Shown one piece after another: positions 23,565 through 28,673 of a stretch of 64,000 nucleotides of DNA; within the stretch, counting starts at the first letter, position 1; each line of letters begins with the position of its first letter. Position numbers and translations under genes: made by a program. Origin of the DNA: a bacterium (GTDB lineage Bacteria; SAR324; JACQKK01). Location of the stretch: NCBI GenBank assembly GCA_965240465.1, contig OZ251219.1, positions 1,056,001 to 1,120,000 on the forward strand, read 5' to 3'. Below the pieces are notes generated by a model. That model worked only from the letters and a program-made list of their open reading frames with translations. It did not search any database and was not told the origin of the DNA.

Positions 23565-24110
23565 ATGTGGCATAATAGAACAAAGGGCAATACATATAAA
23601 AAGTACATTGTGAATTTATTATCATTTTTTGGTTTGTTTAGGGGCTCAAAGTCTACCACTGGTTTAGTGGCTGAGGCTGTGGCAGGGAAATTATCTACGG
23701 ATATGAATTCTGTGCAAGAAGGTTGTCTTGAAACGGATGAGCAGCTTAAGGTTTGGGATACTCCACTGGTGGACTTGGATGAACTTGGTTTGGCAGGTTG
23801 GCAAATGGAGCGTGGAGTCAAATGGCGTATGCCCCCTGCGGGTGAGGTACGAATGGATAGCAATTGGTTCATAAATATTACCCAAGAGTGGTTTAATGTT
23901 GAAGAGAGCCTAGAAGATACAGGGTGTCCTTCGCTATTGGATTGGAACAGCGAGCGTGAAAAGGTGGGGGTTCTCAGTATGAGAGATTTAGTGCTGGACT
24001 TACAACCTTTTGCCTCAGACAAGGGGGCGGAAGGCTGGTGGGAAAGGCAGGGAGTAATGTCGCTGAATATGGAGGAATTAGAGACTGCCAAGCGTGCAGT
24101 GGAAAAATAA
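23565..24110 (+). CDS. Hypothetical acidic, Trp-rich protein (start uncertain)
   Basis: 181-aa ORF between tRNA-Val and the 23S leader. Confidence 0.55.
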   Translation: MWHNRTKGNTYKKYIVNLLSFFGLFRGSKSTTGLVAEAVAGKLSTDMNSVQEGCLETDEQLKVWDTPLVDLDELGLAGWQMERGVKWRMPPAGEVRMDSNWFINITQEWFNVEESLEDTGCPSLLDWNSEREKVGVLSMRDLVLDLQPFASDKGAEGWWERQGVMSLNMEELETAKRAVEK

Positions 24111-24238
24111 AGAGATTTTGAAATATTATTTCTTGATGGCATTATTTTACAATAATTTTTAATAGTCTGCTTGCAGACGGTTTAATTGTGGTTTATGGTA
24201 GAAGATAATGAAACGCAGGTCATTTTAGATGGCTTGAA

Positions 24239-24249
24239 GTTCTTTGACA
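24239..24249 (+). promoter_or_regulatory. rrn boxA-like antitermination site
   Basis: GTTCTTTGACA resembles boxA (TGCTCTTTAACA), about 115 nt upstream of the 23S. Confidence 0.65.
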
Positions 24250-24343
24250 GTAGTGTATGAGGACCCAAAATGCGGATGTGCATTTTGGGCAAATAAGCTT
24301 GAATTCGTAGTGATTTTTGGTTGGCCTTGATAGGGCTGATCTG

Positions 24344-24370
24344 TTGAGGATCTGTGGAATAAAAGTCAAG
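24344..24370 (+). other. 5' arm of 23S processing stem
   Basis: ttgaggatctgtggaataaaagtcaag pairs with 27359..27383 cttgacttttattccacatcctcaa (2-nt bulge). Confidence 0.8.
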
Positions 24371-27365
24371 CAAACAAGGGCGCAGGGCGAATGCCTTGGC
24401 TCCAGGAAGCGAAGAAGGACGTGGCAAGCTGCGAAAAGCCTCGGGAAGACGCAAACAGTTGTTAATCCGGGGATGTCCGAATGGGGAAACCCGACAGTGG
24501 TAATGTGCTGTCATTCTTAGGCTGAATACATAGGCCTTTGAAAGCGAACGCGGAGAACTGAAACATCTAAGTACCCGCAGGAAGAGAAATCAAACGAGAT
24601 TCCCTTAGTAGCGGCGAGCGAACCGGGAATAGCCCAAACCAGTCGGTGTGCTGACTGGGGTTGTAGGGTTGCCATTAGAGTGTGTGTTTGCGATAGAAGA
24701 ACGGTCTGGAAAGTCTGACCAAAGAAGGTTAAAGTCCTGTATTCGAAATCGCGGATGCTCGTTCGGCAATACCCTGAGTAGCTCGGGACACGTGAAATCT
24801 TGAGTGAAGCTGGGTGGACCATCATCCAAGGCTAAATATTACCTGGAGACCGATAGTGAACCAGTACCGTGAGGGAAAGGTGAAAAGAACCCCAACAAGG
24901 GGAGTGAAATAGAACCTGAAACCCTGTCGCCTATAAGCAGTGGAAGTGCTACGGCAGTGTTATAGCTGTCAGAAAGCATGACCGCGTGCCTTTTGCATAA
25001 TGAGCCAACGAGTTATGTTTCGTGGCCTGGTTAAGCTGTCTTAATGAAGTGGAGCCGTAGCGAAAGCGAGTCTGAATAGGGCGTTTAGTCGCGGGACATA
25101 GACCCGAAACCGGGTGAGCTATCCCTGTCCAGGTTGAAGCCTGAGTAAGACCAGGTGAAGGACCGAACCAGTGTACCTTAAAAAGTGCTTGGATGAGGTG
25201 GGGATAGGAGTGAAAGGCTAATCAAACCCGGAGATAGCTGGTTCTCCTCGAAATATATTGAGGTATAGCCTCAGACGATGGCTGCCGGTGGTAGAGCACT
25301 GAATGGACTAGGGGACCTACCAGTCTACCAAACCCAATCAAACTCCGAATGCCGGTATGCTTAGTCTGGGAGTCAGACTACGGGAGCTAAGTTCCGTGGT
25401 CGAAAGGGAAAGAGCCCAGACCACCAGCTAAGGCCCCTAAGTGCCAATTAAGTGGAAAAGGATGTGAGTGTACTCAGACAACCAGGAGGTTAGCTTAGAA
25501 GCAGCTATCCTTTAAAGAAAGCGTAATAGCTCACTGGTCAAGCGTGCTTGCGCCGAAAATATAACGGGGCTTAAATTGGCCGCCGAAGCTGTGGACTGCA
25601 GAAAGAATTCGTTCCTTCTGCAGTGGTAGAGGAGCGTTCTCTGTTGCTAGAAGCCGGATCGGTAAGAGCCGGTGGACGGCAGAGAAGTGCTTATGTTGGC
25701 ATCAGTAACGATAAAGCGGGTTAGAATCCTGCTCGCCGTAAACCTAAGGTTTCCTCAGCCATGTTCGTCAGCTGAGGGTTAGTCGGATCCTAAGGCGAGG
25801 CCGAAAGGCGTAGTCGACGGGTAACAGGTTAATATTCCTGTACTGGCTTAAAAACGTTATGAGTGACGGGGTGACGCGGAAGGCTAGATCGGCCAGGCAA
25901 TGGTTGTCCTGGTTGAAGGATGTAGGGGGTTCGTATAGGCAAATCCGTACGGACATATTCCCTGAGGTCTGATCACGAGGAGCTTGCTCCACAAAGCGAT
26001 TGACGCCCTGCCGCCAAGAAAAACCTCTAAACCAGTTTTTAAGCTATTCGTACCGCAAACCAACACAGGTAGGTGAGGAGAGTATCCTCAGGCGCGTGAG
26101 AAAACCCATGCTAAGGAACTCTGCAAAATGAGTCCGTAACTTCGGAAGAAGGACTGCCCGTATTAAGTGAACGCCATTCGCTGGTGGGAGCTGAGGCGGG
26201 CCACAGCAAAGAGGCCCAGGCGACTGTTTAGCAAAAACACAGCACTCTGCAAACGCGTGTAAGCGGAAGTATAGGGTGTGACGCCTGCCCAGTGCCGGAA
26301 GGTTAACAGGAGAGATTAGAACATTTGTTCGAAGTTTTGAATCGAAGCCCCGGTGAACGGCGGCCGTAACTATAACGGTCCTAAGGTAGCGAAATTCCTT
26401 GTCGGGTAAGTTCCGACCTGCACGAATGGCGCAACGATCTGGGCACTGTCTCGGCATGGGACTCAGTGAAGTTGAAATAGCCGTGAAGATACGGTTAACC
26501 CGCAGCAAGACGGAAAGACCCCGTGAACCTTTACTCCAACTTGACAGTGAATCTTGAGTCAATCTGTGTAGGATAGGTGGGAGACTTTGAACCTCTGGCG
26601 CTAGCCAGGGGGGAGTCAACCTTGAAATACCACCCTGATTGTTTTTGGATTCTCACTCACGGCCTTGAATCAGGTCGGAGGACATTGTCTGGTGGGGAGT
26701 TTGACTGGGGCGGTCGCCTCCTAAACAGTAGCGGAGGCGCGCACAAGGTTCCCTCAGGCTGATTGGAAACCAGCCTTAATGAGCGCAAACGCAAACAGGG
26801 AGCTTGACTGCAAGAGCGACAGCTCGAGCAGGGACGAAAGTCGGCGTTAGTGATCTGGTGGTACTGAATGGAAAGGCCATCACGCATCGGATAAAAGGTA
26901 CTCCGGGGATAACAGGCTTATCGCGCCTAAGAGTTCACATCGACGGCGCGGTTTGGCACCTCGATGTCGACCCATCGCATCCTGGGGCTGAAGCAGGTCC
27001 CAAGGGTATGGCTGTTCGCCATTTAAAGCGGTACGCGAGTTGGGTTCAGAACGTCGTGAGACAGTTCGGTCCCTATCTGCTGTGGGCGTTGAAAATTTGA
27101 GAGGAGCTGCTCCTAGTACGAGAGGACCGGAGTGGACGAACCTCTGGTGCGCCGGTTGTCACGCCAGTGGCAGCGCCGGGTAGCCATGTTCGGTTAGGAT
27201 AACCGCTGAAAGCATCTAAGCGAGAAGCCAACCTTAAGAATGATTTTCCTGGACAGTTACGGCTGTCCCTGTAGGCCCCAGGAAGACCACCTGGTTGATA
27301 GGCGGGGTGTGTAAGCACAGCAATGTGTTCAGCTAACCCGTACTAACTGGCCGTGAGGCTTGACT
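24364..27365 (+). rRNA. rrl: 23S ribosomal RNA
   Basis: Conserved blocks gaactgaaacatctaagta, agtaccgtgagggaaag, ggtagcgaaattccttgtcgggtaagttccgacc and sarcin-ricin loop agtacgagaggac; ends approximate. Confidence 0.98.
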
Positions 27366-27425
27366 TTTATTCCACATCCTCAATACACTAAAAGCAAATA
27401 CGCTGCAGTCAAAACTCCTGTGGAC

Positions 27426-27587: not shown

Positions 27588-27989
27588 ATGAAAACGTTTT
27601 CCTCATTTCCCTGGCGGTACATTATTTTGGCTGCTGTAGCTTCTTTTGTTCTTTCTTTTGTATGGTATAGCCCTCCTCTCTTTGGTGAAATATGGGCTAC
27701 TTTGAGTGGAATTAATCCTGAAAATTTTGGGGTGTTCTTAGCGATAGTATCTTTCATTACTTATTTGCTACAGGCCACGGTTTTATTTGCTGTTTTAAGA
27801 GCTTTTAACGCCAAAGGACTTGATGGGGAATGGTTCACTGCGGTTCTGCTAGTCGGAGTTACAGGCACTCTGTACTTATCAGGCGGTGTTTTATATTTGC
27901 AGAGGCCGCTTGATTTATTTTATATTGAAGGCGGTGATTACTTGCTTGGTATTTTTGTGACCGGATTGATATTGAGTCGCAAGGTATAA
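27588..27989 (+). CDS. DUF1761-like membrane protein
   Basis: AAVASFVLSFVWYSPPLFGEIW motif, 4 TM; AAGGA SD before ATG 27588. Confidence 0.8.
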   Translation: MKTFSSFPWRYIILAAVASFVLSFVWYSPPLFGEIWATLSGINPENFGVFLAIVSFITYLLQATVLFAVLRAFNAKGLDGEWFTAVLLVGVTGTLYLSGGVLYLQRPLDLFYIEGGDYLLGIFVTGLILSRKV

Positions 27990-28055
27990 GAATTTTGTAG
28001 AATAGTAGGTTGTCAATTTGCTATTTTCTTAACACTTCCTTCAAGAGAGGTTTTT

Positions 28056-28460
28056 ATGGAATTGATTTCAGTACTCCCCTTTGGTGCCATCGTGTTGGCA
28101 ACTGTGGCATCTTTTGTTGTTCAGTTTATCTGGTACAGCCCACTGGGATTTGCTAAGGCTTGTAAAAAGTTCAGCAACTCAAACCAAAATTGTAATTGCT
28201 CTATTGCTTATGGTATTTCGCTCAGCTTAATTGCTTTGTTTTTGCAGGCCGTATTGTTGTCTTTTGTATTACAGGCTCTGAATTCTCAAGGCTTTGACAC
28301 GGCTTTGTACGTAACTAGTTTGCTGCTGATTATCAGTGGTAGTGCTAATATGCTGATGGGCTCACTTAGTAATCAAAAGTCAAATATTTTTTTGGCTATT
28401 AACGTAGGAGGATACACAGCAACCGTGGTAACCTCTGCTATAGTATTGGCACTTGTTTAA
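28056..28460 (+). CDS. DUF1761-like membrane protein, paralog
   Basis: ATVASFVVQFIWYSPLGFAK...LAINVGGY; gagg SD. Confidence 0.8.
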   Translation: MELISVLPFGAIVLATVASFVVQFIWYSPLGFAKACKKFSNSNQNCNCSIAYGISLSLIALFLQAVLLSFVLQALNSQGFDTALYVTSLLLIISGSANMLMGSLSNQKSNIFLAINVGGYTATVVTSAIVLALV

Positions 28461-28493
28461 CGTATTTTAAGAAGGAGAAAAACGGCTTTGGTT

Positions 28494-28610
28494 TTGCGGT
28501 GATTATGGCGGAGATGTTCCACCTGTTCCCATCCCGAACACAGTAGTGAAAGTTTCCTGCGCCGATGGTACTGCCCCTTTCAGGGGTGGGAGAGTAGGGC
28601 GTTGCCGTGA
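28494..28610 (+). rRNA. rrf: 5S ribosomal RNA
   Basis: cacctgttcccatcccgaacacagtagtgaa, cgccgatggtact, gggagagtagg; ends approximate. Confidence 0.95.
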
Positions 28611-28673
28611 TCCAAGCCGTTTATTTTCCTCATTTTGCGAATACGGGTTGTTTTAATCCATCACATTTAAGTT

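Follow-up and report, generated by a model that had tools for sequence, protein, structure and literature searches.

Broken ribosomal RNA (rRNA) operons have been described in several groups of bacteria. Unlinked 16S and 23S genes were counted in 574 of 15,521 complete genomes (Ahn et al. 2020, PMC7761764). Such genes have been tied to the loss of RNase III (Brewer et al., 10.1101/705046), whereas Ahn et al. report no significant RNase III difference (PMC7761764). In Helicobacter pylori, which has RNase III but no RNase E, the 16S forms one unit and the 23S and 5S another (Iost et al. 2019, PMC6582327), and the same split arrangement is cited for Rickettsia, Wolbachia and Thermus (PMC6582327, PMC7761764). 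Disruption of rRNA operons by protein-coding genes was recorded in 38 host-dependent and 5 free-living bacteria (Merhej et al. 2009, PMC2688493). Here we analyse a stretch of 64,000 nucleotides (nt) of a SAR324 genome (GenBank assembly GCA_965240465.1, contig OZ251219.1, positions 1,056,001 to 1,120,000 of the forward strand), called the window below; coordinates without a prefix are window positions. The window carries the only 23S gene of this genome and, 1.1 kb further, its only 5S gene, with two protein genes of the DUF1761 family between them. The genome (G000) is one contig of 1,599,138 bp and is compared with its sister species, G001; metagenomes seem to be the only source of either organism. 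An unlinked 16S is nothing unusual; what stands out at the locus is the gene-filled 23S-5S spacer together with the contrast in RNase III and promoter signals between the two sister species.

Results

Two protein genes lie between the 23S and 5S genes

As proposed in the original prediction, which a model had made from the letters of the window, we searched the whole genome with Rfam models and found one 16S, one 23S and one 5S. No 16S lies in the window, in agreement with the claim that the 23S has none upstream: the sole 16S is located at C1:770,529-772,049, 308 kb from the 23S. It is followed by tRNA-Ile, tRNA-Ala, tpiA and secG (the last two named via Pfam on the G001 orthologs), so that the spacer tRNAs said to be absent at the 23S are both found behind the distant 16S. 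The separation far exceeds the 1,500 bp above which 16S and 23S genes are called unlinked, as it does in G001 (~1.06 Mb in linear coordinates). On the 5S side, the distance given as about 1.13 kb was measured at 1,127 nt, and two intact open reading frames (ORFs) occupy it.

24364-27367, + strand, 23S rRNA, single copy (Rfam RF02541, 2858 bits, full model)
27588-27989, + strand, DUF1761 copy 1, four-helix membrane protein, 133 aa (Pfam PF08570, E 1.6e-18, 67.6 bits)
28056-28460, + strand, DUF1761 copy 2, 134 aa (Pfam PF08570, E 1.2e-13, 51.8 bits)
28495-28610, + strand, 5S rRNA, single copy (Rfam RF00001, 76.8 bits)

Both DUF1761 matches extend over the whole profile and exceed its gathering cut-off of 31 bits, and both genes are preceded by Shine-Dalgarno (SD) pairing (-6.6 and -8.6 kcal/mol), which bears out the description of two intact DUF1761-like coding sequences with SD sites. 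No SD pairing precedes the G001 genes. The 23S and 5S models match over their full length, so there is no insertion inside either rRNA. The 5S does not directly adjoin the 23S, as it does in the H. pylori or Rickettsia type, the 1,127-nt gap with its two genes coming between them; nor is it at an unrelated locus, as in the Leptospira type, since it lies on the same strand, 1.1 kb 3' of the 23S.

The gene-filled 23S-5S spacer is real and conserved in the lineage. In run X1, an identical contig covers 27113-29144, running from within the 23S past both genes and the 5S as far as tRNA-Asp, and a second covers 22400-24834. Run X3, from a different study, has a contig across 27109-29175; it differs at 154 letters, has a 33-nt insertion and represents a strain ~92% identical. 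Runs X1 and X2 come from one sample, possibly the source sample of G000; among the pieces listed, X2 breaks between 27396 and 27470, at a tandem repeat, and X4 gives no cover over 27473-30400. The comparison of synteny that had been suggested shows the same gene order in G001, identical from tRNA-Val to tRNA-Asp, with the 16S far away. The two species share 94.1% identity in the 16S, 91.8% in the 23S and a median of 65% in their proteins (97 of 131 sampled ORFs).

We surveyed 88 genomes of the phylum, 34 of which have a 23S 3' end scorable by DNA search, all 34 with a 5S. The 5S follows the 23S by 30-289 nt (median 86) in 30 of the 34, in keeping with the background of the original prediction that unlinked 16S and 23S genes are known and that 23S-5S adjacency is the rule. 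A gene-containing gap of 1.1-1.25 kb occurs only in G000 and G001. In G064 and G065, single contigs from another family (L041-L044), the 5S lies 0.84-0.96 Mb from the 23S; their 16S, 23S and 5S are all far apart, RNase III is missing, and each 5S follows a protein gene on its own strand (rmuC, NAD synthetase) at a distance of 50-70 nt. Where the 16S side is visible, it is linked in 10 genomes and unlinked in five (G000, G001, G011, G064 and G065). Because kin are not independent, these counts are descriptions and not tests.

The 5S precursor stem fills the gap after the second gene

The processing signals of the 23S and 5S, and the hairpins beside them, are as follows.

24239-24250, + strand, boxA-like element in the 23S leader, TCTTTGACA (core at 24241; the same core is in the 16S leader)
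24319-24363, + strand, 23S closing stem, 5' arm (duplex with 27368-27412, -26.9 kcal/mol, z -3.7)
27368-27412, + strand, 23S closing stem, 3' arm (duplex with 24319-24363)
27523-27564, + strand, weak terminator-like hairpin, U-tract 5 nt after it (-13.4 kcal/mol, z -1.8, 12 of 200 shuffles as good)
28461-28494, + strand, 5S precursor stem, 5' arm (duplex with 28611-28644, -25.8 kcal/mol, z -7.4)
28673-28709, no strand assigned, stable hairpin between 5S and cyaY, likely the 3' boundary (-20.3 kcal/mol, z -3.6, 0 of 200 shuffles)

The stems recur in G001, with -35.9 kcal/mol (z -5.6) for the 23S and -26.9 kcal/mol (z -7.9) for the 5S, and the 16S closing stem has z -6.6 and -6.8 in the two species (30 shuffles each for 16S and 5S, 40 each for 23S). 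The closing stems of 23S and 5S leave both DUF1761 genes outside, so that rRNA maturation probably tolerates them. Moreover, the 5' arm of the 5S stem occupies the entire 34-nt gap between the DUF1761-2 stop codon and the 5S. A precursor that includes this stem must therefore almost necessarily start in or before the coding sequence.

The element at 24239-24250 is called boxA-like on the strength of the known consensus. Its core is present in both rRNA leaders of G001 too, and the 9-mer alone occurs 21 times in the G000 genome. A long-range pairing between the boxA region and the 23S trailer was rejected, being weak (z -1.8 and -1.4) and giving way to the better stem at the mature ends. Our scan of the interval from 23S to 5S gave no consensus terminator. 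G000 has NusB, RNase E/G and Rho, and RNase J was not found in the five genomes tested. A second NusB-domain ORF, probably RsmB-like judging by its size, is present in G001 and G008 and lacking in G000. In Escherichia coli, the 5S precursor is cut by RNase E/G. This role in 5S processing is likewise stated in PMC7761764.

Promoter-like sites differ between the sister species

With a promoter model whose consensus was seeded on 194 intergenic sites, the promoter-like site before the 16S scores 12.4 in G000 and 12.2 in G001. Two sites in the G000 interval between 23S and 5S score higher, and both are absent in G001.

27492-27521, + strand, candidate internal sigma-70 promoter for DUF1761-1, DUF1761-2 and 5S (TTGACA-18-TACGCT, score 14.0)
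28294-28321, + strand, candidate promoter for the 5S, within the coding sequence of DUF1761-2 (TTGACA-16-TAGTTT, score 13.5)

The first may alternatively be read as TTGACA-16-TG.TATACG, a motif class with 15 matches genome-wide, 9 of them intergenic; sense-strand sites of the second type occur inside 3 of 1,199 called genes. The best score in the 23S-5S interval of G001, 8.4, is at background. Before the lone 5S of G064, a TTGACA-18-TAAACT site ends just before the mature start, and there is no precursor stem (-5.2 kcal/mol); a strict filter gave no promoter site for the lone 5S of G065. A position test based on GC skew was discarded as uninformative, the trend being weak (+0.10 over the first 500 nt, ~-0.1 further), the DUF genes having likelihood ratios of 1.3 and 0.5, and the test being confounded by strand effects.

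RNase III was probably lost after the operon was split

Of the 88 genomes of the phylum, 82 have RNase III, as do all 18 other members of the family. It was not found in G000, G064 and G065, which are single contigs with the 5S parted from the 23S, nor in G048, G049 and G069, which are fragmented (51%, 54% and 90% complete) and have 23S and 5S adjacent. Two Pfam models, tblastn and tblastx detected neither rnc nor a remnant of it in G000. In G001, rnc and a pseudouridine synthase gene follow pnp; in G000 the next conserved gene comes 283 nt after pnp and both are absent. The absence of RNase III, the trait tied to unlinked rRNA genes, is thus seen in G000 and not in G001. G001 has the same split locus with rnc still in place, so that, by parsimony, the operon was split before RNase III was lost.

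The DUF1761 pair and other genes in rRNA spacers

In a tree of the family, the four DUF1761 proteins of the rRNA loci form one clade (100/99), within which the position-1 copies are paired (98/87), as are the position-2 copies (99/52), so that the duplication probably predates the species split. The family is present in 11 of 41 relatives, and no rRNA lies near any of 10 other DUF1761 loci in them. Signs of mobile insertion were not found: the spacer contains only the DUF1761 matches, without flanking repeats, and there is no further copy in the genome. A query with DUF1761-1 had no match in the JGI metagenomes, and a scan of genome collections returned two loci, the G001-type locus and one weak match of 25 residues.

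The AlphaFold model of DUF1761-1 (pLDDT 93) has four long helices and one short one, and searches by fold found nothing clearly similar (best Z 7.1, no value of 8 or more; best Foldseek E 1.1). Its lysine/arginine (K/R) bias, with loop limits set by eye on copy 1, is +5, which is reversed with respect to DUF1761-2 (-4) and to the G001 copies (-4 and -5, the value for copy 1 being that of its near-identical cluster member P0073). Among 63 other homologs, 59 are at -2 or lower and none at +2 or higher. Oppositely oriented pairs of membrane proteins are known from SMR- and Fluc-like systems, and adjacent paralogs of opposite bias, +5 against -4, are what is found here. This suggests a topology flip after the duplication in the G000 species, possibly giving an antiparallel pair as in small transporters or channels. 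A role of the putative pair in small-solute transport would be a guess in which we place little confidence. The family is named in eight papers; of the seven listed, none deals with its function, judged by title and start of abstract.

Genes in rRNA spacers are not confined to this locus. Three ORFs lie between the 16S and tRNA-Ile of G001 (L034:7799-10207), namely a 153-aa membrane ORF, a cyclopropane-fatty-acid synthase-like ORF and a 214-aa ORF, and none of them has a match in G000. In G008, whose operon is otherwise canonical, a cupin gene lies in the 16S-23S spacer and a radical SAM gene between 5S and tRNA-Val (L015:4276-4731, 8895-10148), and G016 has a methyltransferase gene between 5S and tRNA-Val (L038:564-1316). 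All this cargo is on the rRNA strand, and its unrelated nature points to permissive sites rather than to special cargo. One relative with canonical rRNA order was found in metagenomes by the pattern of its 23S end. Since tRNA-Val(GAC) follows the 5S in the family relatives G006, G008 and G016 (and, by eye, at L062), we infer that a single inversion of the 23S-5S block would give the head-to-head arrangement of tRNA-Val and 23S in G000.

Two further rRNA loci were noted in the survey. In G011, fmt is directly 5' of the 23S-5S pair (L019:3803-8546), with the 16S ~21 kb upstream on the same contig, an order that recalls the fmt-23S-5S order of Rickettsia. Contigs C192 and C420 of G039, a 12-Mb bin, contain tandem 5S arrays with ~920-nt spacing, which look like eukaryotic contamination.

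Surroundings of the locus

The remaining features of the locus are listed here.

23372-23443, - strand, tRNA-Val(GAC), divergent from the 23S unit (Rfam and ARAGORN)
23565-24110, + strand, upstream orphan ORF, genus-specific, up to 181 aa (true start probably ~23610-23634)
27421-27471, + strand, 15-nt unit repeated in tandem in the spacer (three copies)
28756-29085, - strand, cyaY (frataxin-like), convergent, closing the unit (Pfam PF01491, E 2.3e-16)
29105-29181, - strand, tRNA-Asp (Rfam/ARAGORN)

The boxA-like site, hypothetical ORF and divergent tRNA-Val described upstream of the 23S by the original prediction are all present; only the ORF start probably lies further 3' than 23565, because the G001 homolog (BLASTP E 7e-07) aligns from ~23610-23634. 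The ORF is present in 1 of 18 other family genomes and has no Pfam or Atlas match; a tentative YceD-like identity was dropped as unsupported by these searches. By eye, an extended -10-like TGnCATAAT precedes it, and TGnTATAAA in G001.

Short tandem repeats stand beside stable-RNA genes of G000, a 15-nt unit after the 23S (27421-27471) and a 12-nt unit after tRNA-Ala (L001:3674-3747), and suggest that slippage may be frequent in this genome. The first 100 nt of the contig reappear near its end, without exact terminal overlap. Both rRNA units of G000 are on the G-rich strand; the 23S unit of G001 (L014:6071-9086) is on the C-rich strand, in a region of mostly positive skew, and may be head-on to replication. 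Elsewhere in the window, a 330-aa ORF (32072-33064) carries only the C-terminal FliF M-ring domain.

Discussion

We then asked how a 5S gene placed behind two protein genes is supplied. A rearrangement has divided the single-copy rRNA operon into two units, 16S-tRNA and 23S-5S. In the ancestor of the genus, a gene for a DUF1761 membrane protein would have entered the 23S-5S spacer and duplicated there, and the two genes are presumably passengers of the site rather than ribosome factors. The 5S would be released, with RNase E/G as the probable nuclease, from a precursor with protein-coding sequence in it, as the stem-filled 34-nt gap indicates. For G001, the likely precursor is a single read-through RNA that starts at the 23S promoter and is opened by RNase III. 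In G000, where synteny shows that RNase III was later deleted, the 5S would be supplied largely by the internal promoters at 27492 and 28294, with or without read-through from the 23S. Whether the 5S precursor RNA includes the 23S seems, on the sequence signals, to differ between the two species. Taken as a whole, this scenario of a split operon, a coding-sequence-containing 5S precursor, read-through in G001 and mainly internal promoters in G000 is one that we favour with moderate confidence. The original prediction, whose reading is partly supported, had opposed three separate transcripts to the co-transcription of mRNA with rRNA; the two are probably not exclusive, because the 16S has a promoter-like site and a unit of its own while the 5S stem starts directly after the DUF1761-2 stop codon.

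Several observations speak against this scenario. The hairpin at 27523-27564 that might stop 23S transcripts is weak (z -1.8), and a site of the 28294 type, noticed after looking, arises in 590 of 20,000 synonymous resamplings (3%). The model gives the G000 23S unit no convincing promoter (best non-boxA score 7.8); it therefore misses real promoters, possibly in G001 too. A site at 28446, TTGGCA-16-TAAGAA, could start a 5S RNA after the stop codon, with a score at background (7.2). The position-2 copies are paired with weak SH-aLRT (99/52) and long branches. The gap left by rnc in G000 (C1:1254338-1254622) holds ~five tandem copies of a 27-nt unit, and the deletion is read from the assembly. 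Finally, the order of events rests on two species.

One could imagine instead that a single read-through transcript extends from the upstream ORF through the 23S and both DUF1761 genes to the 5S in both species, under boxA/Nus antitermination, with the internal sites being due to chance or minor and RNase E/G alone separating the pieces. All parts are on one strand with no consensus terminator in the scan between 23S and 5S, a boxA-like site and NusB are at hand, and G001 has no internal promoter site. Moreover, H. pylori without RNase III leaves a 23S-5S precursor that reaches polysomes, at little growth cost (PMC6582327). However, G000 has two sites within 1.1 kb that outscore the promoter-like site of the 16S, and a hairpin with a U-tract, albeit weak, precedes DUF1761-1. 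SD-bearing genes transcribed at the level of rRNA would also be expected to yield very abundant membrane proteins. We regard this alternative as unlikely.

Improbable to a greater degree is that the three rRNAs are transcribed separately, the 5S from an adjacent private promoter, and that the DUF1761 genes form an mRNA of their own, being no more than neighbours. Such an end state exists in the class, in G064 and G065 with their dispersed rRNA genes and in G064 with a promoter-like site just before the 5S; complete separation is reported for Leptospira (cited in PMC6582327), and the weak site at 28446 could serve in G000. Yet that site is at background and has no counterpart in G001, and the 34 nt from stop codon to 5S are wholly taken by a strong precursor stem, the like of which G064 lacks (-5.2 kcal/mol).

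That the DUF1761 genes were placed there to serve ribosome biogenesis, or to scale with ribosome output, we consider very improbable: both copies are intact in both species and their position is kept across ~65% median protein identity, but the DUF1761 genes of other relatives are away from rRNA and the family is found in few of them (11 of 41), other rRNA spacers carry unrelated enzymes, and these small membrane proteins have no RNA-binding feature. An assembly error at an rRNA repeat, which had been raised in the original prediction, is hardly conceivable and already refuted by the G001 order and the bridging X1 and X3 contigs, whatever the X2 break at the tandem repeat and the possible origin of X1 and X2 in the source sample may suggest, the rRNA genes being single-copy so that no repeat could mislead the assembler.

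Going beyond the favoured scenario, closed genomes of the phylum might capture a stepwise independence of the 5S, from G001 through G000 to G064 and G065, with the 5S of this genus routinely cut from protein-coding mRNA. First, in the G001 state, a read-through unit that RNase III opens would take up genes in its spacer. Second, in the G000 state, RNase III would be deleted and new promoters would arise in the spacer and inside coding sequence. Third, in G064 and G065, which belong to a separate family, the 5S would be found elsewhere, with a promoter at its mature end. We propose this series tentatively and would not count on it; if true, operon splitting permits RNase III loss rather than following from it.

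The locus is of interest because both large surveys of broken rRNA operons use the 16S-23S distance only and disagree on the link with RNase III. The G000/G001 pair, with the same gene-invaded split locus and different RNase III and promoter signals, bears on which came first, and on how equal amounts of 5S and 23S are kept. If the proposed precursor is confirmed, the locus would clearly exemplify, in a bacterium, the release of a stable rRNA from messenger RNA. In practical terms, amplicon methods spanning 16S-ITS-23S miss such organisms. Our literature searches turned up no report of intact protein genes between 23S and 5S, most subscription journals being outside the search, so that a published case may exist; "5S rRNA" has no occurrence in the available text of the Brewer preprint (10.1101/705046), nor "spacer" or "distance" in that of a 16S-23S-5S database preprint (10.1101/2025.06.23.661116).

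Comparison with known systems

With fully separated rRNA genes, of the Leptospira type or as in G064 and G065, G000 has in common a 5S parted from the 23S, and RNase III is absent in G064, G065 and G000 alike. Unlike in full separation, the G000 5S is still 1.1 kb 3' on the same strand with a precursor stem, and looks like an intermediate state. G000 also fits the category of operons disrupted by protein-coding genes (PMC2688493), although intact genes in a short same-strand 23S-5S spacer are not singled out in the available part of that work. H. pylori shares separate 16S and 23S-5S units, with each rRNA closed by its own stem; there, however, the 5S adjoins the 23S and the bacterium has RNase III but no RNase E, whereas G000 has two intervening protein genes, no RNase III and an RNase E/G. 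Finally, as far as the available texts of Brewer et al. and Ahn et al. go, G000 resembles the unlinked genomes surveyed there in a 16S-23S distance far over 1,500 bp, single-copy rRNA genes, a small genome and a lost RNase III, a loss that is more frequent in such genomes according to Brewer et al. and not significantly so according to Ahn et al. It differs from these surveys, which class the 16S-23S distance only, in that its 23S-5S link is interrupted too and that a sister species keeps RNase III, which allows the events to be ordered.

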